This document shows positions 10,839 through 51,166 of a DNA stretch of 64,000 nucleotides, piece by piece (within the stretch, counting starts at the first letter, position 1; each line of letters starts with the position of its first letter). The stretch spans positions 36,024,001-36,088,000 of the forward strand of contig CM119371.1 in NCBI GenBank assembly GCA_051294905.1. Reading direction: 5' to 3'. Source of the stretch: Botryllus schlosseri (Eukaryota). The position numbers and the translations under genes were made by a program. The notes below the pieces were generated by a model, which saw nothing but the letters and a program-made list of their open reading frames with translations, did no database searches and was not told the DNA's origin.

Positions 10839-12464
10839 CTATATCTTCACAATAGCAGATCTGTAAATTTTAAAACATTGATCTGCCTTTGGTTTTACTG
10901 TAATCCATTTGTCATTTGTTATATCGTACTTTTCAAGTTCATTACAGGTTTCGAAATCTGATACTGTCAAAATCCAGTTGCCAACGTGATAAGCAGAAAC
11001 CAAATTATGACCAGCATTCATAGATGACAATGAAGTCCACTGAGCGGAAGGAACATCATAACATTCTACATTGTTTACTTTCTTATTTCTCCTGTATCCA
11101 CCGATCACAAATATATTTTGGTTTACTGCAATAACACCACTCCTGCACACGGGAAATCTCATTGATTGGAGGTCAACCCACTCGGTTGTGGATGGAGTGA
11201 ATCTACAGAATGCAGAAACGGCGACACCATCTTCTCTGCCTCCAATACAATAGATTGAATCGTTCAATGATATTAGACTTGCTGATGCAATTGCTGTAGG
11301 TTTGTCTTTCAGTTGACACCATTGATTTGCAGAGGAATGAAACGTCTCCACAGCACTTGATGTCACCGGAGAACTTCCACCGATAACGAATATTGACCCC
11401 GACAAAGAAACGGAGCGAGGATAGTCTCCGTGGTTGCTATTCATATCCTTCATCTTTTCCCACTTTGAATTTCTGATCTGAAAGTTCAGCCGGTGGACTG
11501 ATTTATTCCGACATAAAACATAAATGCATGAGTCGATAGCAATAGTACCGAAATGTTTGAAATGCTTGAACTTTTCATCATGGAACCTATCTACTTTCTC
11601 AGTTATTGGATTGAAGGATCGGATGCAATTCGTGTCATTATCGAAAAGAAGTATTAATTCATGTTTGTCAATTTCTTCCCCCGTTTTAACTGGTCTCTTC
11701 GCAGCTTTTAGAAGATGCTGATTGATAAATTTGTACAACGCCAAATCGTTGCTGATAATTGTATGAGTTTCCAACAAATGCTGCAAAAATGCCGCGGAGA
11801 TTTCATCAAATTTTATTACTTCAAGACATTCTTGAAAATTCAATTTCTTCTTCTGATTATACTCAATCCACTTTAGAGAAAGGATTAGCTTTTCTTTCTC
11901 GCATATTTTGGAGTTCCCGGACTTCAAAATTGCGAGAATGTGGTTTTTCTCAACATTTCCAAATTCAGGTTGGTTTGAGATTTCCATGATATTTTCATGA
12001 AAGAATACTTCGCATTTCGCGGAAATAGCGTCCAGTCTATACATATCCGCTACATGTCTTGTAGAGAAGTAACTCACTGCAGTTATTGTTTCCGCTAAAA
12101 TATCAGAAACTTCATGTTTCACATCTTCCATCTGCATAAGGCATGCGACCTGAAGAAGATCGTTAATCTTTTCGTCCGAAATCTCAAAATTACCCGAATA
12201 TATGAAATCAATGCAATTTTTCAAACATTCCGAATCCACGTCTTTGAAAACGACTCTTCCTTCACGATGTTCTTTCGTGTCGTGTTTCAGCATAGCTTTG
12301 AAATAAACCGAACCAGCCGACAATACATTTTTGTGGGTGTAATAGACATCATCTCCGACTTGAACTATAAAATCACAGTGATCATTTTCTCGTTTCATTT
12401 GATGTAATTCTTTCATCATCTTCAATGCATGTTTCTCCACATTAGGACGTATGACGTATACCAT
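10839..12464 (-). CDS. BTB-BACK-Kelch protein (KLHL-like), intronless, copy 1
   Basis: 541-aa ORF; BTB motifs CDFIVQVG..YYTHKNVLSAGSVYFKAML and IDFIYSG; BACK region; Kelch repeats IFVIGG, IYCIGG, VECYD...W. Confidence 0.95.
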   Translation of the reverse strand: MVYVIRPNVEKHALKMMKELHQMKRENDHCDFIVQVGDDVYYTHKNVLSAGSVYFKAMLKHDTKEHREGRVVFKDVDSECLKNCIDFIYSGNFEISDEKINDLLQVACLMQMEDVKHEVSDILAETITAVSYFSTRHVADMYRLDAISAKCEVFFHENIMEISNQPEFGNVEKNHILAILKSGNSKICEKEKLILSLKWIEYNQKKKLNFQECLEVIKFDEISAAFLQHLLETHTIISNDLALYKFINQHLLKAAKRPVKTGEEIDKHELILLFDNDTNCIRSFNPITEKVDRFHDEKFKHFKHFGTIAIDSCIYVLCRNKSVHRLNFQIRNSKWEKMKDMNSNHGDYPRSVSLSGSIFVIGGSSPVTSSAVETFHSSANQWCQLKDKPTAIASASLISLNDSIYCIGGREDGVAVSAFCRFTPSTTEWVDLQSMRFPVCRSGVIAVNQNIFVIGGYRRNKKVNNVECYDVPSAQWTSLSSMNAGHNLVSAYHVGNWILTVSDFETCNELEKYDITNDKWITVKPKADQCFKIYRSAIVKI

Positions 12465-13004
12465 GGTTAACGGTTATAAACAATATGGCTTTAGCTGTCA
12501 TAACAATTTACCAACGGTATTCGAAATGTCATCCAAGCATATGTAAGGTGAATTTCAATAACAACGATTACTTTTGCATCATAATAACCATTTTGAACCA
12601 AACCTATTACAAAACTGATCGATTGTTGACTTATGCTTCTAATATGCTACGGATTCTAATCCATAGAAATTAACGAAGCCTCGCTCAGCACGAAGTTGTC
12701 TGTGCTTACTTTTATACTGCTTGTTCCCGACCCTCCGATCGCTGGATTATGCTAGTCGGACGAAAATGGAATAGTTACATGTTAAATCACCATTCACTCT
12801 GCTTCTACAATAAGGAATAAACGAAGTCATTGGAAACAGAGTTCGTGAAACGAATTTACCGGTATAAAAATCATGGAACTACAAATTCCCTTGCAGAATG
12901 TTGTGTATATTTCCATCTAAATACCTTGCACTGCAACATCAATATTAAAGTCATTGTGACTGTGGATTGAGGAATGATACCCATGACACACATTCTTGCG
13001 TCCG

Positions 13005-18308: not shown

Positions 18309-18486
18309 CAGTGGTTCTTAACCTTGTCTCCAGCGCCCCCCAGGGGTCGATTTGTATTTTGAAGGGGGAGGAAACGCTGAGGGGGCGAAATGGGGGGGGG
18401 CGTTTTGATCAGGGGGCTGTATGGGTGGGCTGAAAAAATATTGCCTCACAGTAGATGGTGTAGTAAGGACATATGATTATATAGTG
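18309..18486. mobile_element. Left part of a hAT MITE split by the inversion
   Basis: Starts cagtggttcttaacctt, preceded by ccctagac; the matching terminus at 32065 is preceded by gtctaggg (reverse complement of ccctagac). Confidence 0.8.
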
Positions 18487-20166
18487 CAGTGGTTCCCAAC
18501 CGGTGTGCCGCGGCACACTAGTGTGCCAATTGGACTGCTCAGGTGTGCCGCGAGCAAATGCGGTAAACTGGGTCGAAGTATAACAAAAATCTAAACTTTG
18601 AGTGTGTCATTGTTGGATTTTCTATTGAATTCACTATATCAAGACACGCGATGTACAATCCGATGCAGTGAACAGATACAAGGATATCGCGACGGCCATA
18701 GTAACGTTATCTCAATCAGGCATCCCATCAGGTCATGGATTGGGTCTTTTTCTGGCTTTTTATTGTAAAGACGCTCTGAGCACAGCAACGTATAGGGTCG
18801 GAGAATATCATAAATCTGCGACGCTTCGTAACTTGCTACTGCACTGCCGTGAATGAAACTGGGGTCTCCACCGTCAATGGGTGTGATACGCTAGTTTGCC
18901 CACATATAGTAGCATTTAGGACGGTGATAGATAGATAACTAGACTCGGGCTATTAGACCGTGATGCTGAGGTGTGGCCGAAGGTGACCTTTTACTTGTCA
19001 CCCCATCACAACCGGAGGCAGAACAGGGACGTGACGTAGTTGATGACCTTTTTCTGTTTTTATTTGTAGTCGTATTCTTGCCATGTCTTCGTTATCGATG
19101 ATAATTTTATACCATGCCGATATAACATATTTTGATTCCTGAGATGCCAACTTATAGCACGGTCCACTTTTTGTAAGATACTGCTTTTGCAGATCCGAAG
19201 ACGAGTAGGAGCCAATATAAACCTCCAACACCTAGGAAGGCATTCCCACCATCGAGAAATGTATAGGCTACTCATTTGGAAGTGATGTTCACGTTTACAA
19301 ATTAGAATTGCCGACAGAACCATTCACATTGCGATTGTTAGGTAGCGTGCCAGCATTGCAGGTAAAATCTAGGCTCAGGGCGCAACGTAATGTTGCAGGC
19401 GACAAATTTGAGAATTGAGAAGTAATGTTGATCAAATTATATCAGTTAACAAATTTCACCGGTCCTGAGGTTTATCATCCCGGTTTGTTGGAACTGCAAT
19501 TGAACAGCAGCTGGCTGCCAGTACGACTCTTGACTGAGGTATTGCTATCCTCTCAGAAGCTATTACACGATCTGCATGGAAACGCGTTTGGCTTCCAAGT
19601 ATAGACACCTCTATACGCGTCTGTATTTGTTGACGATCGCGATCGGACTCTTCCATGCGACGGTTAATTACATCGGCAACGAGGTAGTGTGCAGACTTTG
19701 TTGTCAAGCCAATCTTATGAAATTAACCTCAGCCTGAAGTTTGAACGAGATCTCAGCAAGCAAGTTATGTGGCAACAGAGGTAATGGTTGATAATTCAAA
19801 ACCTCACACGGACTGAGAGAAAGTCCGTATTCCTGCCTGCAATAAAATTGTAAAAAAAAAGAATTGAAAACGATCCCCATGTCAAATTATACCATTCGTA
19901 GACGTATTTGTGAAATGTCCACAGAGATAAAAGAAAACTTAATTTCTTCTTTGAAGCAGCGAAAAGCCTACTTGAGAGCACCGAAAAGGCAGAAGTTGGC
20001 TACTTCCTCAGTGACCACCTATATAAGACTGTGGTTGCTGCTAACGCATTCTGGTAGTTTGCTTTTGCCGTAAGCCAAAAGAGTTCAAAACCACTGTGCT
20101 AGTGTGCCGCGAAATCTTTTTCATTTTCAAAGTGTGCCGCAAGGTCAAAAAGGTTGGGAACCACTG
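18487..20166 (+). mobile_element. hAT Charlie-like non-autonomous element, copy A (1680 bp)
   Basis: cagtggttcccaacc...ggttgggaaccactg; gtgtgccgc subterminal motifs; short Buster-like peptide KTIPMSNYTIRRRICEMSTEIKENL; near-identical inverted copy at 33033-33944. Confidence 0.9.
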
Positions 20167-21178
20167 GGTTAAAGTAACACTGGTCTAATGGTCTGATAAA
20201 AATATGCCTTCGCTCTGCAGCTACGTAACGACCCGGGGATAAAGGTATATTTGCGGGTCGCGTGCTAATATTTATTATTCAATAAAAAAAGTTGTTCCCA
20301 TTGAAATAGATTTAGGGTACGACTTAAATCCTAATATCATGTACGCCATCAATCATATCGCCTAGGCTTGGAGCAGTGGTTTCCAACCTTTTTTGTTGTC
20401 GGAGCCGCATTTCAAATTTCATAGTACGTGTAGAGCCGATCGAATACACTCCTTAGGTATAACAAAACTTTTAAAGCATGAAAGTACGTACCAACGAATA
20501 TAGCAACATTAACATTAGAAAAATACACAAATTAATTTAATGTCCAACTTGGCATTGGCTTTGAGCTTCAAGAAGTGTGTCAAAGCGATGCGTAATTGCA
20601 GAGATGTACGCAGTAGCTGCCTGAGCTGGTCATCGGCCAATCAATTGCGATATTGATTTTCGATTCTGACCATTTGGCTGAAAAGTGCTTCACATGCATA
20701 AAAGTTTATCTAAATAGAGAATCGTTTTTCTGGTCATTGGTTATCAAGTTAAGATACTTTCCCTCTGAAACTTGGCTCCAATATTCAAGTAAGTCTTCAG
20801 TTTTAAATGATTTCTTGAGCTCGATATCCCACTGAATGTATAGCAACTCAAGTTGATAATTTCTAGGGGCAGTGGACACATTAACTACAATAGGATTTGA
20901 ACACCTTTTCATCGTGGGTGAAAAGCATTCATACCGTCAACGCGGCGATTGAACTCATCAGTAAAGGTACTAATAAGCCTGTTGTGTGCATCAAATGATC
21001 CATTGGTTTGATGGTCAGATACTGTTGGGAAATGTCTTGTAACACCACTTGCACTTAATTCTGGTGGTGAGCTGACCGAAATTTGAATGCCAATATGAAC
21101 CCATATGAGTGTGAGTATACTTTTTGGCATGAGTTGAGTAACGAGATCGTCGCTGAGTAAAGAATCGCTACTCGGAAG

Positions 21179-26708: not shown

Positions 26709-26712
26709 CGGT

Positions 26713-28716: not shown

Positions 28717-30078
28717 ATGGTGCACGTCATACGTCCTAATGTGGAGAAACATGCAGTGAAGATGATGCAAGAATTGCATCAAATGAAACTAGAAAATGAT
28801 CATTGTGATTTCATAGTTCAAGTCGGAGAGGATGTCTATTACACTCACAAAAATGTATTGTCGGCTGGTTCAGATTATTTCAAAGCCATGTTGAAGCACG
28901 ACACGAAAGAGAGTCGCGAAGGAAAAGTCATTTTAAAAGACGTGGATTCGGAATGTGTGAAAAACTGTATTAATTTCATAGATTCGGGTAATTTTGAGAC
29001 TTTGGACGGAAAGATTAACGATCTTCTTCACGTAGCAAGCCTTATGCAGTTGGAGGATGTGAAACATGAAGTTTCTGATATTTTAGCGGAATCAATTAGT
29101 GTAGCGACTTATTTCTCTACGAGGAATGTTGCGGATATGTATGGGCTGAACACTGTTTCCGCGAAATGCGAAATATTCCTTCATGAAAATATCATGGAAA
29201 TTTCAAACCAACCTAAATTTGGAAATGTTGGAAAAAACCTAATTCTCACACTTTTGAAGTCCAGCCAATCCAAATTATGCGAAAAAGAAAAACTAATCCT
29301 ATCACTCAAGTGGATTGAGCATAATCGGCAGAAGAAATTGGATTTGCATGAATGTCTTGAAGTAATCGAAATTCACGAAATCTCTTCGGTATTTTTACAG
29401 CATCTGTTAGAAACACACCCAGTTATCAGCAACGACTTGGCGTTGTATAAATTTATAAATCAGCATCTTCTGAAAGCTGCGAAAGGACCGGACACCACCA
29501 AAACAGAAATTGTCGATGATGATTTATTACTTCTTTTTGACGATGGCACGAATTGTATCCGATCCTTCAATCCAATAACTGGGAAAGTAGAGAGGTTCCA
29601 TGAAGAAAAGTTCAAGCATTTGAAACGTTTCGGTACTATTGCTAACGACTCATACATTTATGTTTTATGTGATGATAAATCAGTCAACCGACTAAACTTT
29701 CAGATCAGAAATTCAAAATGGGAAAAGATGAAGGATATGATAAGCAACCACGGAAGCTATCCCCGCTCAGTTTCTTTTTCGGGGTCAATATTCGTTATCG
29801 GAGGAAGTTACCGGTGGACATCACGGGTTGTGGAAACATTTCACTCGTCTGCAAATCAATGGGTTCAACTTAAAAACAAACCGACAGCAATTGCAGATGC
29901 AAGTCTCGTATCATTGAATGATTCCATATATTGTATCGGAGGTATAGGAGAAGATGGTTTTACCGTTTCTTCATTCTGCAGATTCACTCCATCCTCACCA
30001 GAGTGGGTTGACCTCACACCAATGCACATTTGCGCTGAAAACTATTTACTTTGCGTTTCTTGTACTAGACATGATTAG
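28717..30078 (+). pseudogene. BTB-BACK-Kelch copy 2, 3'-truncated (open frame, last ~106 residues missing)
   Basis: Homologous ATG at 28717 (MVHVIRPNVEKH); similarity ends at EWVDLTPM (about 30024), then HICAENYLLCVSCTRHD-stop; downstream-flank homology resumes at about 30098. Confidence 0.85.
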
Positions 30079-37222: not shown

Positions 37223-38851
37223 CTATATCTTCACCATAGCAGATTTGTAAATTTCAAAACATTGATCTGACGTTGGTCTCACTATAATCCATTTGTCATT
37301 TGATATGTCGTACTTTTCAAAGTCATTGGAGGTTTCGAAATCTGTTACCGTAAAAATCCAGTTGCCAACGTGATAAGCAGAAACCAAATTATGACGAGCA
37401 TTCATAGATGACAATGAAGTCCACTGAGCAGAGTTAACATCATAACATTCTACATTGTTAAGGTTCTTCCGTCTACACAGCCCACCGATCACAAATATCT
37501 TTTGTTCAACGGCAACAACACCACTATCACACACAGGATATCTCATTGGTTCGAGGTCAACCCACTCTGATGAGAATGGAGTGAATCTGCAGAATGAAGA
37601 AACGGTGACCTCATCTTCTCCTATACCTCCGATACAATAGATGGAATCAGTCAATGATACAAGACTTGCATATGCAATTGCTGTGGGTTTGTTTTTCAGT
37701 TGCAGCCATTGATTTGCTGAGGAGTGAAATGTTTCCACAGCACTTGACATCACCGGAAAACTTCCTCCGATAACGAATATAGACCCCGACAAGGAAGCTG
37801 AGCGGGGATATTCACCGTGGTCACAAATCATATCTTTCATTTTTTCCCATTTTGAATTTTTGATTTGAAAGTTTATTCGGTGGACTGATTTATCGATACA
37901 CAAAACATAAATGTATGAGTCGTTAGAAATCATACCGAAACGTGGCAAATGCTTGAACTTTTCCTCATTAAAGTGCTCTACTTTCTTAGCTATTGTATTG
38001 AAGGATCGGATACAGTCTTTCTCATTATCAAGAAGTAATATTATTTCATTCTCGTCAATTTCTTCTTTCGTTTTTTCTGGTCTTTTTGCAGCTTTCAGAA
38101 AATGTTTATTAATATATTTGTACAACTCGAAGTCGTTGCTTATAATTGGGTGCGTTTCCAACAGATGTTGCAAAAATATTGAGGATATTTGGTCATATTG
38201 GATTACTGCAAGACATTCATGCAAAAACCGTTTCTTCTTCCGATTATTCTCAATCCAATTGAGACATAGGATTAGTTTTTCTTTCTCGCATAATCTAAAT
38301 TTGCTCGACCTCAGAATTGTGAGGATTAGGTTTTTCCCAACATTCCCAAATTCTGGCTGGTTTGAGATTTCCATGATATTTTCATGAAAGAATATTTCGC
38401 ATTTTGCGAAAACAGTGTTCAGCCCATACATATCCGCAACATTCCTCATGGAGAAATAATTCGCTACAGTGATTGATTCCGCTAAAATATCAGAAACTGC
38501 ATGTTTCACATCTTCCAACTGCATAAAGATTGCTACATGTAGAAGATCGTTGATCTTTTCATCCGAAATCTCAAATTTACCCGAATATATGAAATCGATA
38601 CAGATTTTGACACATTCCGAATCAACGTCTTTGAAAGCGACTCTTCCTTCACGGCTTTCTTTCGTGTCGTTCTTCAACATGGCTTTGAAATAATCCGAAC
38701 CAGCCGACAATACGTTTTTGTGGGTGTAATAGACATCATCTCCGACTTGAACTATGAAATTACAATGATCATTTGCCTGTTTCATTAGGTGCAATTCTTC
38801 CATCATCCTCACTGCATGTTTCTCCACATTAGGACGTATGACGTGCACCAT
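37223..38851 (-). CDS. BTB-BACK-Kelch protein (KLHL-like), intronless, copy 3
   Basis: Uninterrupted ORF; homologous ATG at 38851 (542 aa); collinear with copy 1 to the terminal VKI-stop. Confidence 0.95.
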   Translation of the reverse strand: MVHVIRPNVEKHAVRMMEELHLMKQANDHCNFIVQVGDDVYYTHKNVLSAGSDYFKAMLKNDTKESREGRVAFKDVDSECVKICIDFIYSGKFEISDEKINDLLHVAIFMQLEDVKHAVSDILAESITVANYFSMRNVADMYGLNTVFAKCEIFFHENIMEISNQPEFGNVGKNLILTILRSSKFRLCEKEKLILCLNWIENNRKKKRFLHECLAVIQYDQISSIFLQHLLETHPIISNDFELYKYINKHFLKAAKRPEKTKEEIDENEIILLLDNEKDCIRSFNTIAKKVEHFNEEKFKHLPRFGMISNDSYIYVLCIDKSVHRINFQIKNSKWEKMKDMICDHGEYPRSASLSGSIFVIGGSFPVMSSAVETFHSSANQWLQLKNKPTAIAYASLVSLTDSIYCIGGIGEDEVTVSSFCRFTPFSSEWVDLEPMRYPVCDSGVVAVEQKIFVIGGLCRRKNLNNVECYDVNSAQWTSLSSMNARHNLVSAYHVGNWIFTVTDFETSNDFEKYDISNDKWIIVRPTSDQCFEIYKSAMVKI

Positions 38852-39798: not shown

Positions 39799-39910
39799 TC
39801 CTAAAGCATAAAGTCACCAAGTTCTAGAAACAAACGTATCGACATCGAAATTATTGAACTACAAATGGCTTTACAGAAGAGTTGTATATTTCCATCCAAA
39901 TACCCTACAA

Positions 39911-40759
39911 CAGTGGTTCCCAAACGGCGGGGAATTCCCCACTGGTGGGGAATTTCGGGATTTCTGGTGGGGAATAGACTCACTTTTGAAACAAAATCTT
40001 TATAGTTCTCCTTTATTAATGTTCATTTAGAAAAGCCGAGCGATATCTCTAATATTTCTTAGGTCATTCACAATTCAGAGATTCATGTTATCAGCGCCTC
40101 CGATTCGCAAGAATCACCTGGATAGCGACACATGACGTCCAGCAATTGTTTTTATTCATTTGTACACCATCATCGGTCACGAAACGTAGTGATAGAAAAT
40201 ATCCTGATTCGTTGTATTAAGAGCTCATATTGCTGAACTTGAACATGTAGGCTACTCGAGGGAAATCATGAACTCGCTAATTAATTGCACTACCAGACTC
40301 GTTACAAATTAAATCAGATATGTATTTAGTTTCAAGTTCTTTTAATAGCATGCGAAAGTGAAGTTTACGGCAGCTTATTTGTATATCAAACGCATGAGCT
40401 CGTCAACACCAGGAAGTTTATCTGACCCATGTATTATTCGGCATTTACGTATGTAAATTGATGCTACCGCACAAGATTTGGAAAATTTTCAAGCCCCTCC
40501 TATTTTTCTGTTGGCTGCGCGCCAGGGTGGATACATATATTTACGGAGTCGCGTTTAAGGTTACCATTTTACGGCTTTTTAATTATCAATTCCGGGGATC
40601 TTAACAATCCCCAATATCACGTATTTACTGATCAAAGTCTTGCAAAATTTTAAAAGAGGTAGGAAATTAATAGGGTTGATATACAGATTTTAGGTGGGGA
40701 ATGAAGGCTCGGAATAATTCGGAAGTGGGGAATTAAGATTAAAAGGTTGGGAACCACTG
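39911..40759. mobile_element. hAT Charlie-like MITE with GGGGAAT motifs
   Basis: cagtggttcccaa...ttgggaaccactg; perfect TSD ccctacaa. Confidence 0.92.
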
Positions 40760-42029
40760 CCCTACAATGATACAATAATATTATAGTCATTGTCCCTCCC
40801 GATTGACCAATGATACCAACGACACATATTCTTAGGTTAGTAAACCCATAAAAGCACGCATTAAACCCTGTTGTCTTCTCTGTCTGCTTACCTCATCTGC
40901 TCAGTTCTGCACTACGAGGGGCATGAATAATATACTACTTAGATAAATCAACGACTACTATATTTGAGATCAAACAATGACGTAATTTCTACCAATTACG
41001 AGCTTGCACCCAATGTTGACATATCTAGCAAGCAGTGAATACATGCAGCTTGGAAGGGTTAATTTAAAGAGATTATATTGACTTTCATCGTAATGAAATG
41101 CTAAAAATCATACAAATGTACCATGTTGCTAAACCTAGTTACACTATTCATTTATGATGGTTTCATGAACTTATCGATGACCTCCTGATATAAAAATTAT
41201 AATATCACTGCACATCATAACCGTCTATCGTAAGACCTAAATAGTGGCAACAAAGCAACACAAATTCCTGCTTCAAAGCTGGTGGAACAATTTTAGATTG
41301 TCGCAATGTCAGGTTAATATCAGATTACGAATAAATTATATATTCATATTTGAACTGAACATGAATATTGCTGATCTGTCTCGATACAAGGGCAATTGTC
41401 AGCGAATGAAAAAAATACAAAAAATATGTTACAACGGTGCAAAATGTTTTTAAAAGCAGAAATGTGGATGTTTTGTTCGACCACAAAAACTTAATGTCGG
41501 TTATATGATCGATTCAAGCTTCACTGCCACCTCGGTGGGAAAGGAGTATCGAAACTATAAATTCTAGTATATTCCTATCATTGGATATTTTGATTAGTTC
41601 AATAATTTTTCAATGCGAAAATATCGTCTCAAACCACGCGACACGAATTATCACAATTAAAAGTTTAAAACTCGATTCAGATCTCTTTATTCGAATCATT
41701 GTCACCAGCCTTAAAAATGTGCTGTGTCGTTACCGCCGATTATGCGAAATTGTTGTGTTCAGGCAGTATATTCACAGATTGGCGCATAGCACAGGTTTCT
41801 CTGAGTAAATTAAAATCCGTTTACTCGTTCCAATAATTCAGTTGAACATCGGCATAACCTCCCTAGCTGCGGATGAAACAAAATTGCATCTCTCCACTAC
41901 CTAAGGGCAATAAATGTTTGTTGATATTGACATATAACTTTTTACCCGGATTACCGCAAGGCATAGCAAAATCTGCATGCGCCTGACCAACTCTGACCGT
42001 GTGTGTCATATAATTTTAAAATTTAAAAA

Positions 42030-42110
42030 CGTTGCCGACAGGATTCGAACCTGCGCGGCAGAGCCCAACATATTTCTAGTCTGACGCCTTAACCACTTGG
42101 CCACGACAGC
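42030..42110 (-). tRNA. tRNA-Ser(AGA)-like gene, probably pseudogene
   Basis: Minus strand GCTGTCGTGGCCAAGTGGTTAAGGCGTCAGACTAGAAATATGTTGGGCTCTGCCGCGCAGGTTCGAATCCTGTCGGCAACG then TTTTT; long variable arm; mismatches in anticodon and acceptor stems. Confidence 0.85.
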
Positions 42111-42114
42111 ACCG

Positions 42115-45100
42115 TTTAAGCGACGTTTATTCAAATATATACATACAATATTGATAATTTCATTAAGAAAATCTTTCCCCGTCATCGGGTCATCTCGTCT
42201 CAGCCGTTGCCGAAGTCGGGTCTGTATTCGCGGTCGTAGCAGACGCCGTCGTAAAAGTTGGCGCTCGTAGTCGCTCGGTTCATCTCATCGCAGCAGTCGA
42301 TGTCGATTGGTAGTCGTGGTCGTAGTACGAGCCGCCGGTACTAGGCGCTCGTTTGCGTGTGTTTTTCGTAGTCGTTGGTGTATGGTTTGGGTTGTGTGTC
42401 AGGTATTCGGTGCGGATTGGTGGTGGGGTTTGGGGGGATAAGGTAGGATTGTGGCGGGGGGTTAGGAGGTTGGGTAAAGTGGGATGGGATGGGAGGTTCG
42501 GGTGGTTGGCATAGGTTGTGGGTGGATTGGTTGGGTTTTATGAGTCGATATATACAATACGATTTATCGCGCGAGCGTTAAGTGGGCTCGCTTAAATTAT
42601 TCGGTATATTTTACTTCTTATATCGTTGATGCGTTGGTCAATATTTTGGGCGTATTCATTTTGGATGTCGAGTGCATTTTTCCATCAGCATACAAGTGTT
42701 TTCACGTTCATAAATGCTTTCATTATGGTCGGAGCTTGCGGTCCGTTGTAGACGTAGCGTATGATCTCGTCGGGTGTAGCGTCAATAGTCGTTTGCAGGT
42801 CGTTTTCGAGATCCTGTATTGCAAGAGAGATCAGTTTTTTGTAAGTTGCATATTCGGCGAAGGTGTGACGTAGAGTATCTTCGGTGTGTTGGCAGAGTTT
42901 GCATTTGTTTTTCAAGTAGGCGTCTTTTCTTCGTACCCAGCCCGCGCTGGTTTTTCCGGAACCTGTAAAGTAGGCTCAACTCTCAGTGTTTTAATGCGAT
43001 ACGTAATCTCACGTTTCTTGTTGTCAATGTGGTCTTTGATATTGGGTTGGTATAGCCATATCTCTTTCCAGTCCGCCGTGTGGCTTCCTTCTTTTTAACA
43101 ATGATCTAGTACATTTCTTTCTGGCTTAGTTCTTGTATATCTTGTGATTGGCTTTTGTTTACGTCGAAGATTTCCTTTTTCTTCCTCCATTCCTCCGTCA
43201 ATGTATTTCTGTGAAGGTAGAGGTTGTTGTATAAATTGCAATTTATATCGCTCACCTTCGTTGTCAGATTGAGTATCGCTTCTGCGTACCAGATATCAAT
43301 CGCGCTCTCAAGTCGACTGAGTTGTTGTAGTCTTTTTGCTCTCTTTGTTTGTGTTGCAGATTCGATATCTGGCATATCGACCCCTCCTTCTGGCTTGGGT
43401 CTGATCAGTTGCATTCTGCTTTTTTTGCTCGAGTTTCTCAGGACTCCACAGTAGGCCGAAGAGGAGGCGTTCAAGTTGCTTGAGCTTGTCGTCTGGAATC
43501 TGCTGGTTGGCATATGTATACGTAAATTTTGCTAATTATGTAATTATTACCAATCCAAGAAAGCCGTTTCGACTTAATATGCCTTACACTTTTCTCGACT
43601 CCTTGCAAGAGCCCGTCGAAGTTCATTTGCAGTTCGATTTCTCCGTGGTATAAGCCCAGTATCTAATTACTGGCCTCAGCACATGTGCGTGCGTAGTTTT
43701 TCGCAGTCTGATGCGTGATTTTTCGTTCAGCGGTATGATTCTGTCTTGTCTGTGTTGATATCTTGACCTGTCACTCTATGCAAACTTTGATATTCGTTAA
43801 GGACTGTGGTAATAGAGTCAGTTGTTCTTAGATATAGTGTGACGTCATCAGAAAATTGGTCCGATTTATGCTCTATCCCGCCGATTCGGATACCTTTGAT
43901 GTTGTCATTAGGCCTAGTGCCTAATTTGTGGACTAGCGGGTCTGCGCTAATCGCGTATAGTATCATACTCAAAGATCCTTGTCTAGCGCCCCCTGTACAT
44001 TATACATTGGCTGCTTGGAGGCCGTTAACCTCGAGGGTCGCAATGGGATTATCATATATGGCTTCAATCACTTTAAGCGTTTCTCCCCTGACGTGCAATT
44101 TGTCAAGCACTTTGGAAAGCATTTGGTGGTCGACCTCATCAAAGGCTTTCCTTGCGTCTACGTTCATTATATAGCCTTCCAAAGGTTTTTCTTGATGATA
44201 ATTAACAATTGCACTCACGCTGTGGCGTATCACGTCCATTTCTCTCCCGGGAATTCCCGCTTTCTGTGTCATGCTGATATTGCTCTAAATTTCCTCAACC
44301 AGTCTGTTGTTGAGAATTCCCGCCATTATTTCGATTTGAAATGTCATAATTCCGCCGTACCACCCAAACACTGATTTTAGATCTTGAGTGATACTGAGCC
44401 TTGCACTAATAAGAATATGTCCCTGAATAAAGAGTAACTGGTAAATGCGTGGAGCTGCCAGTGGTCTTTAATTTTGATTGATTTCATTTTTCACCATCAT
44501 CAACGGGCATGTTGAAAGAAAGTTGGAGAACCACTGATGATGGCCAGCAAGTGTGAAGTATCTTGGTAACAATACAGTACAGATTCTCATTGTGGTCTGC
44601 GAGTCATTCGGTTCTGATAAAGACCTTGGGCATTTCTACCAAGTAGTGGTACTCCACCACCCTGACAAAGTGCAGGTGTTCCTCCTCTTTTTGCGAATCG
44701 ATTGAACGTTTCTTCAAACCTTCGCTCAAATACTCGCACTACTAGGTCGGTGTGTCTGGCTCCCAGTTGACAATCAGCCACCTTTTCTATGAAGGACTTC
44801 ATATCACCACGCTCATCCTCAATTAAGGCAATTTTCATGGCATGTAGCTGCATCGACGAGGAGGTAAGCGCGGGTTGCCTTGTCAAAACATATCCTCCAT
44901 CCAGTATGTGGCTGGTTGTTGTGCTTCCAGCATAGATCAACTGGAACACATCTAGTAGCCCAAAATCTTCCATGATGTTACCAATTGATCCGAGATAAGA
45001 TTTCAATAGATGAAAACCACCCAACGTTGGAATGACTGGTGAACTTGTCTGCTTTATTATATAGTCTATGCATCCCTCGGCTTAATCGGAAGATCGCCGG

Positions 45101-46234
45101 TGACTTTAGTGACACCAGCGCGGTGTGTGCACCCTTTAAGAGTGGTGAAGGTGGTGTTCAAGTCATTACGGTCTCCTTCAATAACTGGATGGAACTCGAT
45201 CTGTGTGCGCTGTTTTGCTTAAGCATTGATTCTCTTAATCCAGCCATTCCAGTTGGAATGTTTAAACTCAAGTAGGTTCATTGGATTTAATAATCAAGCC
45301 CGCTGCTCATAGTGTGTTACCTGGATTGATCCATGAGCCAAGGATAAGAAATAATGGTGAAACAGCGACGATCCAAGCAGAAACAATCGACATTGAACTC
45401 ACAGAAGTCTGTGCTGGGTTCATAGCCGCTTTTACTTCGGTACAATTGCGTCCATCTCACAGAACGGAATAATACAGAAAATACCGGTTTAGCCCTTGCT
45501 GGACGGCTTAGTGCTGTATTTGGAGAATTACTGTCCTGATTTTAAGCCTATATATGTGTGTTTTACCCAGTAATAAAGTGTACAGAATTTGTTGAATCGT
45601 TCGGTATCGATTTACTGAACGGTATAACTGACGGTATAACTACGCCATCAGCGCCATTACTGGTACATATATTTTCCACAAAACAGTCTGTAGTAAAAAG
45701 TAAACTTTGACAATCAATTGAGAATCATGAAAAACCATTATTATACCCATACTTCTACTTAGTAACCTATAGGCGATTAAGGATTTTTTTTCTTCATTTT
45801 TTTATTATTTTATTTTTTCAAATTTGTCAGATTTAACAGCTTTTGTTTCTGGGTTTCCCACAAGAGTTGAACTTCAACATTTTAACACATGTTATAAGAG
45901 ACCTTGACAGACGTATTGGCGAAGAAATAGTTTGGTAACAATATAGTTCACAGATTTGTGATATATTACATAAAGTGCCTTTACTATGAATCAAGATCCA
46001 GATCCAGCTACGCGATATGTTTCCGTATTTTACGCATTGTTTATGATTTCTGTTAATCTCGAACCAATGCTTTGCCACATAGTGAGGTAGAATTCCAATG
46101 TTAGGCCGTCGAAACTCGGTGACCTTTTCCTGTTCACTGCTTTCGGTATTTGTAATATTTCGCTAGATTGTATTACCGATCCTTATTCATTGTCTCTCTC
46201 GTGATGCCGTCGTGCTGATACGATGACAGATATT
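42115..46234 (-). mobile_element. 5'-truncated Tx1/L1-type non-LTR retrotransposon inserted at the tRNA-Thr/tRNA-Ser junction
   Basis: RT motifs RSPSFDGLTLEFYLTMW (about 46075-46130), QKAGIPGR, VDARKAFDEVDH, QFSDDVTLY, PKPEGGVDMPDI, C-terminal CKLC; AATAAA near the 3' end; 8-bp direct repeat cagcaccg at 42107-42114 and 46235-46242. Confidence 0.88.
44540..45770 (-). mobile_element. DNA-transposon remnant nested in the LINE, probably Academ-like
   Basis: GGFHLLKSYLGSIGNIMEDFGLLDVFQLIYAGSTTTSHILDG resembles a motif I associate with Academ transposases; it interrupts the RT. Boundaries approximate. Confidence 0.55.
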
Positions 46235-46242
46235 CAGCACCG

Positions 46243-46308
46243 AGCCACCGGTGACGTTCGAACTCACGTTTAAGCAGATCAGTGCTCTAGCCTCTGAGAT
46301 GCGGCGGT
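46243..46308 (-). pseudogene. Degenerate tRNA-Thr, partner of the 42030-42110 tRNA-Ser
   Basis: Minus strand ...ctcagaggctagagcactgatct...cgtgagttcgaacgtcaccggtggct-cggtgctg aligns to 26636-26716; upstream flank 46310-46730 matches 26250-26635. Confidence 0.75.
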
Positions 46309-48206
46309 TGACGACGAGGCAGACTGTGAAGACGTTTGCAATTTTACTTAGTACCAGTTGTCAAGATCATATATAACTAATACTGTTGCAGTTGTAATAA
46401 CAGTATCTTCATTTGAAGATCACATTTATGAAATCTATTCCTATATGCTAGATTTGGCCCTCAATATTAATTTTAGTATGCTTCACCACCATTGTATTAT
46501 TCTACCATTAACCACGGAACATATGCAATAACTGTATTGTTCATTGTTTGCAGAGTGCAGCGGTGATAACATTAGCGTACACTCTCCGCGAAAAGATGTG
46601 TATAACGACCTGTGTATCATCCGTGACATATGGGTGTGAATATACACCCGCGCTACGCAAAACCAGTACCGACCTGGGACTTACACGACGGTATAATAAT
46701 AAAATACAACAATTTAATCGAAATGATGCTTGGACGCAGGTATGCGCGTAGGAACGATGGATTGATAACCGCGAGATATGTTTGGGTTAGGTACTGTTTT
46801 CGTGTACCACCATTTGGGTGTGAATACACACTCTTTCGCTAAGAGTGTGTGTACTGCAAGTACGCCTACGCAAAAAAAAGTTTCAGTTGAAAATAATCGC
46901 AATCGGGATCCGCGGAGTTCCTTGAGCATAGCCACCAACAAAGCTCTTTCTTCCCCGGCCGCTTTTATATTCTATCTGCGTTTGCGGAGAATCAAGATAT
47001 TTTGAACCATTTTCAATTCCAATTCTGGTTCAGAAGCAGGTACAGCCAATATGGAGTTGAATATCAATACCGCACCCTTCCCACAAACGTATACCTATGT
47101 ACTGGTAGCGTCTGGAATATCACTCGTTCTGTTAGTTCCGATGCTGTCACTATTTATCAGGATTAGGATCAAGTGGACTCATTTCGCTTTGCGGATACAC
47201 GGGTAATTTAAGCATTAGTACACGTCTCGCTTATGATCTGGAGCATTCAAGTCATGGCTCTGGTGCATCTCCTCCCGATTCTCTCCAATTCCAGGTTCAA
47301 GCTAAACGGAAGAGATCAAAGAAGCCATTGCTCGTATTCAATTAGAAGTCGAAGTAACGTAGTAAGTTTCTACCTATAACTACAAGTAAAAGTTGCGATT
47401 TTCAAGAATGTAAATGTATACGTATTCTAGAGGCAGGGTCGCCATATCGTCCTTATTTCTAAGATTTGTCCTTATTTTGAATGGCCACGTCTTGGAAATC
47501 TCAACTGTCCTTACTTTTAAGAAAGGTCCTTCTTTTCGACTTGCGTCCTTATTTTGTCGTATTTTCAACAACTACAGAACTTTAAGCGCTTTCTTGTGAT
47601 AGCCTATCTGTGTTGCAATATCTATCAATATCTATCAATCCAAACTAAGTTCGGTGTGTGGTAGAACACTAGGATTTCCCAGAGCCAATATCAAGGGATC
47701 TCTGCGGGCAAAGAAACATACTCAACTCATACATATGATATGCGATGATTCGACCGTCTTGGCTATCAACGGTTGCAGGTAAATAGGCTTGACCAGTAGT
47801 CGAATTGTCGTGGTACGCCGTGTGCACAAGAAAGATTGAGTTTCAATATGGTAACCCAGTCCATCTGAAATGCCAATTCTATCTCCAATATTTTTACGCT
47901 CACTGGTAAATAAGCAATATGTATTCACGCTGCTGAGTTTCGACCGCATTTCAAAACTGTTATCTTAACGGAACAGCAGAAGTGACTCTGAATCGTAATA
48001 AATATTCCTTATAATAATTTCGTTTTATGTGAAAATTAAATTTTAATGAAAATTTTCTCCTAAAAATATGCTGATACACGGTTAATTTCTCGCGCCAGCA
48101 ATTCAAATCAATGTTTAGATAAGTATGTAGAATGTAGATGTAGATAGATGTTGATTGTGGTCGATTTTTGTTATTACACGTCAACGAAAATTTGGGGTTT
48201 CGCGAA

Positions 48207-48634
48207 AGAGAGAGAGAGAGAGAGATTTATTGATTTGTCCAACCGTAAAGAAAACAACATCGGCACATGAAACAACAATAGATGAACTTAACGGTATTGG
48301 ACAGGGTGTGACCGATATGACTCTGGGTAGGGTCAACTGGTCTGATCACACCCTGCATTAAAAAATACAGATATTGTGTCTTAAATTTGGATGCAATTGG
48401 TTGGGATCAATCTATTCAATTCAGCTCAGCATAATAATAAAATACTAACAAAAGACATATTTGGTGGGAGACAAGCGGATCAGTTATAATGGGAGACAAG
48501 GTGACTGAATAATTCCTTTTTAAAGGAGTGGTATGGGAGGTCCCGTATTGATGAGGGTATAGAATTCCATATGACAGGACCGGCATAGTCGATCGATTTC
48601 TTTGTGAGGTTACTGGTGGGTCGATGTAGAGATT
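48207..48634 (-). mobile_element. 3' end of a CR1/L2-group LINE with (CT)n tail
   Basis: KKSIDYAGPVIWNSIPSSIRDLPYHSFKKEL C-terminal motif; AATAAA then (CT)n on the minus strand; empty site in paralog near 10050. Confidence 0.8.
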
Positions 48635-49510
48635 GCTTGCAGATTAACGCGCGTGTTCCTGGGTTATCAAAGAACAGGAAACACTGTTCTATATATAATA
48701 TCAATACAACATGGCAATCAAGTTTCGTTTTTTCTTCATGTAAAGTTGTATATGTAAGTCAAAATATCATTACTTCTAAGCGTGAAATATTGGTCGGTGT
48801 TTCGACGTGACACTCCGATCTAATGACTGTCGATTTACCAGGCGTCGAACCCTGTCTGCTGCACTAAATCTGTTTCCCGAACTCGGCAAACCTCGCGTAT
48901 CAGTCTTGTATTCAATCATACACAACCAAGCACTCCGAATTGAACAAGGCCTTGGTTGAAACATGAAGAATGAAGATGCATAATGGAGAGAGACTTGCAA
49001 TAGTGCTTGCTCGTCCGTTGCTCGGTGGAATGGAGCGCGAGACAACGGTAACGAGGGTCATTTATACACTAGCGAAAATATAATTAAAGAGTAATCAAAC
49101 AATCAAAATCACTAACAATCGTAAAATCACTAAAATCGTAAAATTACAAAGATTGGAAAAACCGAATACAAAGAAGGACAGTTACATTGGCGAACTGATT
49201 CCTCTAAAAACGTACTCAAATATAAAGACTAGCAAATAACATGAGCAATCGCAAACAGTCGGTAACCAATAAACTATAGTACAAGAAACGGAAAATAAAT
49301 TTGTCAAAAATATTATAATTATTATAGCAACAAAAAGATGTACAATTTTCACCGCAAATATAATAGTGAACGTTTGATGAAGCGTAGTGAGCGCATGTGA
49401 GAGATGGAATTTGTAATGTTATCGTAGATATGTAGCCTACAATCTATATCTTCACACGTGGCCTACTAAAAACAGTACGCCATGTGTCACAATAGCAGAC
49501 TTATAGTAGG

Positions 49511-51166
49511 CTATAAGTACTTATAGTAGTTTAGGAGGCCATGCTTCACAATAGCAGACTTATAAATTTTATAACATTGATATAGCTTTGGTTTTACTAT
49601 AATCCATTTGTCATTTGTTATATCGTACTTTTCAAGTTCATTACAGGTTTCGTAATCTGATACTGTCAAAATCCAGTTGCCAACGTGATAAGCAGAAACC
49701 AAAGTATGACCAGCATTCATAGATGACAATGAAGTCCACTGAGCAGAAGTAACATCATAACATTCTAGACTGTTTACACTCCAATTTCTCCTGCTTCCAC
49801 CGATCACAAATATATTTTGGTTTACTGCAACAACACCACTTACGCACACGGGAAATCTCATTGGTTGGAGGTCAACCCACTCACTTGAGGATGGAGTGAA
49901 TCTGCAGAATGAAGAAACGGCGGTACCATCTTTTCCTACGCCTCCGATGCAATAGATGGAATCGTTCAATGATACGAGACTTTCATTTGCAATTTCTGTA
50001 GGTTTGTCTTTCAGTTGCACCCATTGATTTGCAGAGGAATGAAATGTCTCTACAGCACTTGATGTCACCCAACAACTTCCTCCGATAACGAATATTGACC
50101 CCGACAAAAAAACTGAGCGAGGATTTTCTCCGTGGTCACGAATCATATCCTTCATCCTTTCCCATTTTGAATTTTTGATTCGGAAGTTTAGTCGGTGGAC
50201 TGATTTATTCCGGCATAAGACATAAATGTATGAGCCGTTAGCAATACTCCCGAAATATTTCAAATGCTCGAACTTTGCATCATGGAACTTCTCTATTTTC
50301 TCAGTTATTGGATTGAAGGATCGGATACAATCCGTGTTATCATCAAAAAGAATTATTAATTCATGTTTGTCAATTTCTTCCTCCGTTTTTTCCGGTCTCT
50401 TCGCAGCTTTCAGAAGATGCTGATTGATAAATTTGTAGAACGCCAAGTCGTTGCTGATAATTGCATGAGTTTCCAACAGATGCTGCAAAAATGCCGCGGA
50501 GATTTTATCAAATTTTATTACTTCAAGACATTCATGAAAATTCAATTTCTTCTTCTGATTATACTCAATCCACTTTAGAGAAAGGATTAGCTTTTCTTTC
50601 TCGCATATTTTGGAGTTCCCGGACTTCAAAATTGCGAGAATGTGGTTTTTCTCAACATTTCCAAATTCAGGTTGGTTTGAAATTTCCATGATATTCTCAT
50701 GAAAGAATACGTCGCATTTCACGGAAACAGCGTCAAGTCCATACATATCCGCTATATGTCTTGTAGAGAAGTAACTCGCTGCAGTTATTGTTTCCGCTAA
50801 AATATCAGAAACTGCATCTTTCACATCTTCCAACTGCATAAGGCATGCGACGTGAAGAAGATTGTTAATCTTTTCGTACGAAATCTCAAAATTACCGGAA
50901 TATATGAAATCAATGCAGTTTTTCACACATTCCGAATCCACGTCTTTGAAAACGACTCTTCCTTCACGATGTTCTTTCGTGTCGTGTTCCAACATGGCTT
51001 TGAAATAATCCGAACCAGCCGACAATACGTTTTTGTGGGTGTAATAGACATCATCTCCAGCTTGAACTATGAAATCACAGTGATCATTTTCTCGTTTTAT
51101 TTGATGTAATTCTTCCATCATCTTCACTGCATGTTTCTCCACATCACAGCATACGATGTGCATCAT
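49511..51166 (-). CDS. BTB-BACK-Kelch protein (KLHL-like), intronless, copy 4, altered N- and C-termini
   Basis: 551-aa ORF collinear with copy 1; N-terminus MMHIVCCD; ends IVKHGLLNYYKYL because of an insertion; ancestral stop remains at 49444-49446. Confidence 0.93.
   Translation of the reverse strand: MMHIVCCDVEKHAVKMMEELHQIKRENDHCDFIVQAGDDVYYTHKNVLSAGSDYFKAMLEHDTKEHREGRVVFKDVDSECVKNCIDFIYSGNFEISYEKINNLLHVACLMQLEDVKDAVSDILAETITAASYFSTRHIADMYGLDAVSVKCDVFFHENIMEISNQPEFGNVEKNHILAILKSGNSKICEKEKLILSLKWIEYNQKKKLNFHECLEVIKFDKISAAFLQHLLETHAIISNDLAFYKFINQHLLKAAKRPEKTEEEIDKHELIILFDDNTDCIRSFNPITEKIEKFHDAKFEHLKYFGSIANGSYIYVLCRNKSVHRLNFRIKNSKWERMKDMIRDHGENPRSVFLSGSIFVIGGSCWVTSSAVETFHSSANQWVQLKDKPTEIANESLVSLNDSIYCIGGVGKDGTAVSSFCRFTPSSSEWVDLQPMRFPVCVSGVVAVNQNIFVIGGSRRNWSVNSLECYDVTSAQWTSLSSMNAGHTLVSAYHVGNWILTVSDYETCNELEKYDITNDKWIIVKPKLYQCYKIYKSAIVKHGLLNYYKYL

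Follow-up and report, generated by a model that had tools for sequence, protein, structure and literature searches.

Does the array of BTB-Kelch genes at this locus of the colonial sea squirt Botryllus schlosseri encode receptors whose binding loops have been diversified by selection, as an earlier note had proposed? We analysed a stretch of 64,000 nucleotides (the window), and the features located in it are collected in Table 1. The four open reading frames (ORFs) reported previously were found at the positions claimed for them, each with BTB (PF00651, E = 1e-19 to 3e-22), BACK (PF07707, E = 2e-9 to 1.5e-11) and Kelch_1 (E down to about 2e-25) matches in Pfam. The description of the genes as intronless holds for the coding region, each copy being a single ORF, and has that scope. 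Three of the four paralogs are intact, copies 3 and 4 being 75% and 84% identical to copy 1, and copy 4 carrying an extra 10 residues at its C-terminus. The fourth, copy 2, is truncated. The conserved Met of the family lies inside its ORF, and the protein retains BTB, BACK and blades 1-4, with the last ~105 residues (blades 5-6) gone: its Pfam Kelch matches stopped at residue 454, tblastn reached only residues 1-436 of copy 3, its match in its own genome covered query positions 1-437, and a C-terminal remnant was found nowhere in the window. Since family similarity stops at 30024, blades 5-6 are absent, and copy 2 therefore does not encode a full six-blade propeller and is likely a pseudogene.

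Table 1. Features of the BTB-BACK-Kelch array, in window coordinates.
Feature	Position	Strand	Basis
3' flank common to duplication units	9487..10838	-	direct repeat families D3-D6
Copy 1, single-exon BTB-BACK-Kelch, intact	10839..12464	-	ORF, 541 aa incl. stop codon
Copy 1, six-blade Kelch propeller	10842-11660	-	Pfam Kelch_1, 2.1e-25
Copy 1, codons 347-348, D-A loop between blades 2 and 3	11421..11426	-	
Copy 1, BACK	about 11772-12065	-	Pfam, 3.9e-11
Copy 1, BTB	about 12090-12404	-	Pfam, 3e-22
Upstream block (~100 nt), local subfamily	12465..12570	-	alignment of 10 upstream regions
Upstream block, equivalent by copy 2	28615-28716	+	blastn flank matches
Copy 2, truncated, inverted orientation	28717..30078	+	ORF from 28669, 469 aa
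3' flank matches beside copy 3	34145-34771, 36854-37234		blastn, 81-92% identity
Copy 3, intact BTB-BACK-Kelch	37223..38851	-	ORF, 542 aa
Upstream block, equivalent by copy 3	38852-38947		blastn flank matches
3' flank matches beside copy 4	47660-48139, 48833-49126, 49273-49455		blastn, 81-92% identity
Copy 4, intact BTB-BACK-Kelch	49511..51166	-	ORF, 551 aa
Upstream block, equivalent by copy 4	51167-51240		blastn flank matches

The window genes belong to a cluster of 10 genes spanning 345 kb. A 25-nt BTB motif matched 122 times in the genome (495 Mb), compared with 0 matches for a control motif, from which the family size was taken as at least about 120 single-exon members. An initial look at the genome gave 545 candidates; all of the 80 scored were near full-length, and an internal stop was absent in 75 and present in 5. 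The reading frames of the family have been maintained open: paralogs differ by a dS of 0.14-0.47, and in a neutral simulation at 0.1 substitutions per site the open frame survived in only 4 of 2000 trials. Birth-and-death evolution, as had been suggested, fits the truncated copy 2, the 5 scored copies with stops and a near-identical gene pair (dS 0.006). The nearest neighbours of a gene change from one segment to another, indicating that some exchange between copies occurs as well. A literature search returned no published description of this BTB-Kelch family.

The lack of introns and the many copies could point to an origin in a mobile element or a virus (a large DNA virus carrying a BTB-Kelch gene, for instance), the genes having then multiplied with a selfish element. 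BTB-Kelch genes of poxviruses and other Nucleocytoviricota have the same architecture and are likewise multi-copy, intronless and fast-evolving; Nucleocytoviricota accounted for 2 of the 10 language-model neighbour clusters listed (leads without alignment), and the intergenic DNA of the window contains dispersed repeats and a reverse-transcriptase fragment. Against this, none of the 27 other ORFs of the window exceeded the Pfam curated cut-off (one held a sub-threshold reverse-transcriptase fragment and one a weak, chance-level match), the GC content of the genes equals that of their surroundings, and the tandem copies share promoter-proximal and 3' flanks, as expected from unequal crossing-over. 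Viral BTB-Kelch proteins target host proteins, whereas here the arrays are of a host type and have no viral neighbours in the window. We regard such an origin as scarcely credible.

The fold of the encoded protein was examined on copy 1. Its AlphaFold2 model (mean pLDDT 89.8) showed six four-stranded blades (24 strands), with blade 1 closed by the C-terminal strand, and helices 132-141 and 145-157 directly after BTB, in the BACK/3-box position. The best full-length Foldseek matches were KBTBD2-CUL3 complexes (E = 6.7e-33); the propeller aligned with the Kelch domains of KLHL12 and KEAP1 at TMt 0.82-0.85, KEAP1 was also matched in sequence (2.2e-35), and residues 12-246 matched the KLHL3 BTB-BACK domains (entry 4hxi, 2.5e-22). 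A BTB-BACK homodimer was predicted with a score of 0.67 (best of 3 controls, 0.00). Among proteins of solved structure, 21 of 30 pairs of one chain attained that mark, compared with 0 of 23 single chains. The prediction may, however, simply reproduce similar BTB dimers that have already been solved. The predicted partner had a pLDDT of 84, contacts agreed 100% between runs, and the interface comprised residues 1-23, 44-51 and 88-100. In its three-domain architecture, six-blade propeller and predicted BTB dimer, the family resembles the vertebrate KLHL/KBTBD adaptors (KEAP1, KLHL12, KLHL3, KBTBD2), from which it differs in sequence (identity only 15-22%). Vertebrate KLHL/KBTBD genes number a few dozen and are mostly old, dispersed and intron-containing, each with its own conserved substrates. 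The Botryllus paralogs, unlike these, are young, have a single exon, number at least about 120 and lie in tandem arrays, with the presumed pocket under positive selection. The Cullin-3 gene of this animal is split into exons.

We further investigated where the paralogs differ. All of the loop strings quoted in the earlier note were present in the alignment, both those after GG (GGSSPV/GGSYRW/GGSFPV/GGSCWV; GG-RED/GGIGED/GGIGED/GGVGKD; GGYRRNKK/GGLCRRKN/GGSRRNWS) and those between blades (NSNHGDY/ISNHGSY/ICDHGEY/IRDHGEN; AIASA/AIADA/AIAYA/EIANE; VCRSG/VCDSG/VCVSG). Loop and strand classes were set by the predicted structure, and not by residue variability. For the three intact copies of the window, we obtained a dN of 0.218 and a dS of 0.221 in the B-C and D-A loops, versus 0.085 and 0.344 in the strands, and this contrast exceeds chance. 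The strands are conserved, but not nearly invariant, as had been stated.

Selection on codons was measured in 67 paralogs using self-written likelihood code, in which the topology was held constant, branch lengths were those of a nucleotide tree after scaling, and posteriors were naive, not Bayes empirical Bayes. Omega was 0.44 under M0 and below 1 gene-wide (0.3-0.66). The comparison of M7 with M8 gave 2dlnL = 878.6, M8 assigning an omega of 3.36 to 5.1% of sites; M1a versus M2a gave 876.3, and a model allowing any distribution with omega <= 1, neutrality included, was rejected against an unrestricted one (2dlnL = 918). Averaged across whole B-C/D-A loops, omega was only ~1 (0.82-0.99), so that the excess is carried by about 25-35 sites. 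On an alpha/beta grid, 34 sites reached P(beta>alpha) >= 0.9 and 307 were purifying. Grid-called sites fell mainly in Kelch (30, versus 4 in the N-terminal 268 residues), and 24 of these 30 lay in B-C or D-A loops (Fisher p = 7e-7); M8 placed 21 of its 23 Kelch sites in the same loops, in all six blades, which is not an even distribution. The synonymous rate was not raised in the loops (alpha 1.17-1.39 versus 1.15 in strands). The ratio of beta to alpha was 0.20 in the BTB core, 0.37 in the 3-box helices and 0.37-0.39 in the BACK region. Positive selection in the family is strongest at codons 347-348. Site 347 (alpha 0.5, beta 9.0, grid posterior 1.0) showed 19 residue types among the 67 paralogs between the invariant H345 and G346 and a P349 kept in 65 of 67, and was called again by M8 and in the eight local genes alone. 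The claim of diversifying selection is supported by an omega > 1 class together with the loop placement of its sites: positive selection is site-specific and concentrated in the B-C/D-A loops of all six blades.

Recombination between copies inflates tree-based site tests. Relaxed loop constraint, with gene conversion and alignment error imitating omega > 1, could be put forward in place of adaptation, given the segment-wise switching of nearest neighbours, a whole-loop omega not clearly higher than 1, and hot sites such as 365 and 460 (a few such) in gapped alignment columns. The strongest sites, however, lie in ungapped columns flanked by invariant residues, as at 347, and combine a beta of 4-9 with an alpha of 0.3-0.5. 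A tree from Kelch only gave 2dlnL = 672. When the gene set was divided, 2dlnL was 43-47 for the local eight genes and 626 for the other 59, and the two independent site lists had 13 of 19 sites in common where 2.6 were expected (p = 1.5e-8). A cross-check that needs no tree used the 38 sites identified from the other 59 genes. At these, dN/dS was 1.45 for the local genes and 1.48 for the window copies; the remaining Kelch sites gave 0.34-0.36. The rejection of omega <= 1, the recurrence of sites in disjoint gene sets and the tree-free result make an explanation without adaptive diversification very improbable. The window's own subfamily shows the signal at largely the same sites, and the finding of the same mode and positions in a separate local subfamily argues for a property of the whole family instead of a peculiarity of one array.

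In solved KLHL/KBTBD complexes the substrate site is the upper face of the propeller, shaped by D-A and B-C loops (Canning et al. 2013, PMC3597819, in the part of that source available to us), and in the predicted model the selected loops occupy the corresponding face. Judged by sequence and model, the selected sites would form the pattern expected of a binding face. A conserved scaffold whose loops on the likely target face evolve faster than neutral leads to the prediction of diversified ubiquitin-ligase target receptors. Our main reading, to which we assign a probability of roughly 0.7, is a tandemly amplified single-exon BTB-BACK-Kelch family with upper-face loops under positive selection and a constant BTB, whose products are likely dimeric Cullin-3 receptors. 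Going by solved KLHL/KBTBD structures, the BTB domain would dimerise, BTB and 3-box would dock on Cullin-3, and the selected loops would constitute the substrate pocket; each receptor would bind a protein target of its own and present it for ubiquitination. Some BTB-Kelch proteins bind actin, and the propeller might instead act as a scaffold, decoy or cytoskeletal binder independently of Cullin-3, with BTB serving oligomerisation only, a reading with which the weaker constraint on BACK than on the BTB core agrees. The complete set of BTB, 3-box/BACK and Kelch domains has nevertheless been retained, the best matches (KBTBD2-CUL3 and KLHL3) are Cullin-3-bound adaptors, and strong purifying selection on BTB over at least 67 paralogs fits a common conserved partner, so we consider a Cullin-3-independent function improbable.

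The Cullin-3 receptor reading places the family beside known adaptor expansions. The earlier note had compared it with nematode F-box and MATH-BTB proteins; the comparison stands as an analogy of evolutionary mode, but not of membership, as no MATH or F-box (FTH/FBA) domain was detected in any of the four copies (Pfam, E <= 0.01). Such nematode expansions were reportedly described by Thomas in 2006. As in nematodes and plants, lineage-specific tandem genes for predicted Cullin-RING adaptors here combine a conserved docking part with a positively selected putative substrate part; unlike those systems, the substrate part would be a Kelch propeller instead of MATH or FTH/FBA, and F-box proteins use another cullin than BTB-Kelch adaptors do. 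The likeness is, by analogy, one of convergent mode and not of common descent. Tunicates (sea squirts) are the sister group of vertebrates. Diversifying Cullin-RING adaptors are already known in nematodes and plants, where they are discussed as intracellular surveillance, and a Kelch version with more than 100 intact members would extend this idea to chordates and to a different binding fold. In the accessible parts of two sources, the expansions are proposed to serve intracellular recognition of foreign proteins (PMC8120010, C. elegans F-box; PMC4091423, grass MATH-BTB).

The diversification of the Botryllus family may be driven by proteins that change fast or are polymorphic, those of pathogens, viruses, mobile elements, competing cell lineages or gametes being candidates. 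With Cullin-3 binding and target capture both predicted, a role in defence is a guess. A more far-reaching version, which we think doubtful, is a germline-encoded intracellular repertoire of a chordate, in which more than 100 BTB-Kelch pockets, each of a different shape, would sense and destroy fast-evolving foreign or rival proteins. Near-identical BTB domains could then cross-pair paralogs and multiply specificities, and the targets might come from viruses, mobile elements, or parasitic germline or stem-cell lineages of fused colony partners. If true, this repertoire would be an innate, inside-cell counterpart of the antigen-receptor repertoire. Colonies of this sea squirt fuse naturally and are exposed to germline parasitism, so that a connection with allorecognition or with competition between cell lineages can be put to the test. 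The about 25-35 residues of the presumed pocket, contributed by all six blades, provide a testable list toward the recognised targets.

The same molecular mode could also operate in reproduction, with the genes forming a KLHL10-type germline or spermatogenesis ampliconic family driven by competition among sperm, gametes or germ-cell lineages instead of by pathogens. Tandem amplification with positive selection is typical of reproductive genes. The termite Zootermopsis, whose colonies are able to merge, likewise has a lineage-specific BTB-BACK-Kelch (KLHL10) expansion, of 37 genes versus 10 in Macrotermes and at least about 120 here; expression ties it to spermatogenesis, a link with colony mergers is suggested as possible, and site selection in propeller loops is not reported in the portion of the source available (PMC4348803). 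A 'Kelch-like protein 10' transcript is among fertility-associated Botryllus genes, although nothing in the available part of that source connects it with the window's family (PMC4523013). The language-model neighbours of the family were generic BTB-BACK-Kelch clusters, none of them named KLHL10, and paralog reads occurred in all four of the bulk RNA runs, which two studies had contributed and whose libraries look unstranded. We judge a reproductive arena unlikely.

As for transcription of the copies, these runs showed that members of the family are transcribed, with 41-508 reads per run at 85% likeness, but at 95% likeness copies 3 and 4 had a depth of at most 1.5, with 97-100% of reads fitting only partly, and reads at least 99% alike to copy 1 numbered 2, 0, 0 and 19 across the four runs. 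The reads at 85% likeness were confined to the coding region, with a peak on the BTB domain and zero depth upstream of 12575. The conserved upstream block carries a TATATAA-like motif ~22 nt ahead of the ATG, and going by its letters it is possibly a core promoter.

The four long open reading frames (ORFs) were located where an earlier note, based on sequence only, had placed them, and every loop string it quoted was present in the protein alignment of the copies. Numbered 1 to 4 in order, 4/4 carried BTB, BACK, and Kelch_1 domains by Pfam, and the other window copies shared 75-84% protein identity with copy 1. The likeness of copy 2 to the other copies stopped at 30024; its last ~105 residues (blades 5-6) were gone, and no remnant of this C-terminal part was found elsewhere within the window. 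Copies 1, 3, and 4 had ~100 nt 5' of the ATG in common, as well as stretches of the 3' flank, which is the trace that tandem segmental duplication would be expected to leave. A dispersed repeat flanked copy 2 on both sides, in inverted orientation; the two flanking repeats were 98-100% alike, with other genomic copies of the repeat at only 89-96% (1164 first-look candidates). Copy 2 is itself inverted, and its segment could have been inverted via recombination or duplication between these repeats. None of the 27 other window ORFs of at least 100 aa scored above a Pfam curated cut-off. Matches below the cut-off were a reverse-transcriptase fragment, probably a decayed retroelement, and one weak match at chance level. 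An antisense ORF inside copy 3 was taken for a chance frame. Copy 4 read 10 residues past the usual stop of the family, and another family gene, L002 (G000:C1:35904273-35905892; 595 aa), had a 54-residue basic tail beyond that stop.

Positions of genes and other features in the window
Feature	Position (nt)	Strand	Remark
RVT_1 fragment	7985-8416	-	28.9 bits, just below 29.6 cut-off
3' flank of copy 1 with RNA reads	10300-10572
Copy 1 ORF	10839-12464	-	541 aa
Residue 7 of copy 1	12444-12446
Dispersed repeat, one of two inverted copies	18486-20184
Copy 2 ORF	28669-30078	+	469 aa, truncated and inverted
Dispersed repeat, one of two inverted copies	33015-33945		lacks ~750 nt of interior
Stretch with partial RNA fits	36000-37067		fixed difference at 36227
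Copy 3 ORF	37223-38851	-	542 aa
Antisense ORF inside copy 3	37911-38387	+	158 aa
Copy 4 ORF	49511-51166	-	551 aa
Extension of copy 4 past usual stop	49511-49543		10 residues

The copies belong to a much larger family. The assembly comprised 495.5 Mb in 219 contigs (the window being G000:C1:36024001-36088000), and copy 1 as query drew 545 first-look candidates from it. Of these, 80 were scored; 80/80 were strong, near full-length, single-ORF matches with 56-100% identity, and 75/80 had no internal stop. A 25-nt motif of the BTB domain matched the genome 122 times (39 forward, 83 reverse), with 0 matches for the reversed control. Clusters of the motif were found on contig 1 at 6.54-7.59, 13.83-14.02, 14.75-15.69, and 35.88-36.22 Mb, with a few matches on other contigs. 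The genes of the window sat in the last of these clusters, ten genes over 345 kb. In the gene tree, from which truncated copy 2 was left out, one split joined seven of these ten (L001-L007, including the three intact window copies) with one contig-14 gene, apart from the other 59 genes; the last two genes of the local cluster, L066 and L068, fell outside it. Two of the seven, L005 (G000:C1:35999601-36001226) and L006 (G000:C1:35879432-35881057), lay 120 kb apart with dN 0.001 and dS 0.006, which points to a very recent duplication, to conversion, or to two haplotypes that were not collapsed during assembly. In a large protein collection, the best relative outside the genome was a full-length protein of 54% identity (P0001), and the other relatives were ordinary BTB-Kelch proteins of at most 28% identity. 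Neighbours in a language-model protein atlas were generic BTB-BACK-Kelch clusters only. A separate locus, L071 (G000:C9:15067070-15070354), carried a GH6 glycoside-hydrolase domain divided between two exons, and a second copy (L072) lay 43 kb off. GH6 is not known from animals outside tunicate cellulose synthase; L071 would fit such a gene and agrees with a tunicate source. A search of the assembly for COX1 gave no match.

Pairwise comparison of the local genes gave dS of 0.14-0.47 and gene-wide dN/dS of 0.30-0.66, the L005/L006 pair (dS 0.006) being the exception. When copy 1 was evolved neutrally in simulation, its frame stayed open in 83/2000, 4/2000, and 0/2000 trials at 0.05, 0.10, and 0.15 substitutions/site, respectively. 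Since neutral frames rarely stay open and nearly all scored copies were open, the proteins are under purifying selection. The BTB core was the most constrained part (ratio of nonsynonymous to synonymous rate, beta/alpha, 0.20), and the 3-box helices stood at 0.37.

Transcription was examined in four raw bulk RNA runs with the same species label, whose libraries looked unstranded. At 85% likeness, 278, 41, 143, and 508 reads were placed on 10300-13000 in the four runs, most of them at most 90-95% alike. They covered the coding region of copy 1 with a peak on the BTB domain (bin 12302-12392: depth 20+10 in run X8 and 31+34 in run X14), and depth was zero across 12575-13000. Reads on the 3' flank reached ~30 per strand in run X14 with many loose ends, and may stem from a repeat or from a 3' end that several genes share. 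In runs X8 and X13, no reads fell on unique intergenic bins at 95% likeness, and DNA carry-over was therefore an unlikely source of the reads. The reads at 85% likeness are interpreted as paralog transcripts, and the family is transcribed. Reads at least 99% alike to copy 1 numbered 2, 0, 0, and 19, which does not establish a transcript of copy 1 itself. For 36000-52000, ~6-13% of each run was read, and 79-313 reads were placed at 95% likeness, 97-100% of them as partial fits; copies 3 and 4 reached a depth of at most 1.5 in the four bulk runs, with no clear transcript. The expectation that the copies are transcribed was borne out for paralogs of the family, but not for copies 1, 3, and 4. The stretch 36000-37067 had a depth of 2-7 in four/four runs at 95% likeness, nearly all partial fits, and resembles a short repeat that forms part of transcripts from other loci.

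Selection at single codons was modelled across the family. Of 70 family loci, three were excluded: L023 (premature stop) and L057 and L059 (aberrant N-termini). Copy 2 was likewise omitted. The remaining 67 genes were aligned by codon (541 columns kept), and a nucleotide maximum-likelihood tree was built. We used our own pruning-likelihood codon model with F3x4 frequencies; the topology was fixed, and a single free factor scaled all branch lengths. M0 gave an omega of 0.44 and a kappa of 2.15 for the 67 paralogs. The comparison of M7 (lnL -40167.12) with M8 (-39727.82; six beta classes), proposed by the earlier note, yielded a class with omega above 1 (2dlnL = 878.6; 5.1% of sites at omega 3.36). 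M1a (-40292.55) versus M2a (-39854.38) gave 2dlnL = 876.3, the class above 1 having an omega of 3.87 and taking in 4.9% of sites, and a free omega mixture restricted to at most 1 versus unrestricted (lnL -40067.9 vs -39609.0) gave 2dlnL = 918 with ~11% of sites above 1. Under these simplified codon models, with site posteriors from naive empirical Bayes, 25 sites reached an M8 posterior of at least 0.95: codons 7, 204, 277, 300, 304, 319, 347, 348, 366, 393, 394, 410, 415, 440, 441, 457, 460, 461, 462, 487, 488, 504, 509, 532, and 535 of copy 1. A grid in which synonymous (alpha) and nonsynonymous (beta) rates varied separately per site found 34 sites with P(beta>alpha) of at least 0.9 and 307 with P(beta<alpha) of at least 0.9. 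The strongest was site 347 (alpha 0.5, beta 9.0), which held 19 different residues in the 67 paralogs and was flanked by invariant H345 and G346 and by P349 (65/67). Mean alpha was 1.17-1.39 in loops and 1.15 in strands; with rates so similar, a mutational hot spot does not explain the pattern. Nearest neighbours differed between gene segments, so exchange between copies occurs, and such exchange can inflate tree-based site tests. With a Kelch-only tree the signal was kept (2dlnL = 672). Averaged over whole loops, omega was ~1, the excess being carried by ~25-35 sites.

We located these sites on an AlphaFold2 model of copy 1, for which the input alignment comprised 62 family members and 8 outside proteins. 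Mean pLDDT was 89.8, and the model showed six blades of four strands each, blade 1 being closed by the C-terminal strand. Residue classes were taken from the model's strand list and fixed before the site lists were viewed; in the Kelch part there were 42 residues in B-C loops, 61 in D-A loops, 39 in A-B and C-D loops, and 131 in strands. The 30 Kelch sites of the grid fell on B-C loops (15), D-A loops (9), C-D loops (2), A-B loops (0), and strands (4) (Fisher p = 7e-7), and the N-terminal 268 residues held only 4/34 grid sites (p = 2e-6). Among M8 sites in Kelch, 21/23 were in B-C or D-A loops, with all six blades represented. The selected sites were not spread evenly over the structure; an even spread would have spoken against the earlier proposal. 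Canning et al. 2013 (PMC3597819) place the substrate site on the upper face, its pocket shaped by inter-blade D-A and variable B-C loops.

Largely the same positions were selected in the window's own genes. In the three intact window copies, dN/dS was 1.14 in B-C loops, 0.99 in B-C and D-A loops together, 0.52 in the bottom (A-B and C-D) loops, 0.25 in strands, and 0.34 in BTB. The eight-gene local clade alone gave 2dlnL = 43-47, and 16/19 of its sites (Kelch-only partition) were in top loops. An independent analysis of the other 59 genes called 38 sites, and 13 of the 19 were among them, compared with 2.6 expected (p = 1.5e-8). In a check that needs no tree, pooling those 38 sites gave a dN/dS of 1.45 for the local genes and 1.48 for the window copies, with 0.34-0.36 at other Kelch sites. 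The window genes are a second, separate subfamily whose selected positions largely match those of the rest of the family.

Structural comparison pointed to Cullin-3 adaptors. In Foldseek, full-length KBTBD2 in Cullin-3 complexes ranked first against the copy 1 model (E = 6.7e-33, TM 0.55), followed by the propellers of KLHL12, KEAP1, and KLHL17 (TMt 0.82-0.85, 15-22% identity). By sequence, copy 1 matched KEAP1 at 2.2e-35 and the BTB-BACK domains of KLHL3 (entry 4hxi) at 2.5e-22 over residues 12-246. A predicted BTB-BACK homodimer scored 0.67 versus 0.00 for the best of 3 controls, a score that may reflect memory of similar solved dimers; that mark was reached by 21/30 solved one-chain pairs and 0/23 single chains. 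The partner had a pLDDT of 84, with full agreement between runs. The family is most likely a large set of predicted dimeric Cullin-3 substrate receptors that is young and arose by tandem amplification; selection would push the target pockets of the copies apart and keep the ligase-docking half the same. The driver proposed by the earlier note is defence, which would pit the receptors against fast-changing foreign proteins. Conflict in reproduction or between cell lineages is a serious rival explanation, and expansion of the same architecture in a termite has been linked to spermatogenesis (PMC4348803). This mode of adaptor diversification has been described for F-box and MATH-BTB families in nematodes and plants (PMC8120010, PMC4091423). 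A search of the open-access literature found no description of the family, and as far as that search reaches, no chordate relative has been described with so large a Kelch-propeller version. The window contributes the second, separate subfamily, the formal M7/M8 result, the tree-free cross-validation, and read-level evidence of family transcription.

The predicted dimer interface comprised residues 1-23, 44-51, and 88-100, which is the usual BTB dimer interface. Residue 7, one of only two N-terminal M8 sites, lies within it, in the part formed by residues 1-7, and its variation could, speculatively and on the predicted dimer, tune which paralogs pair.
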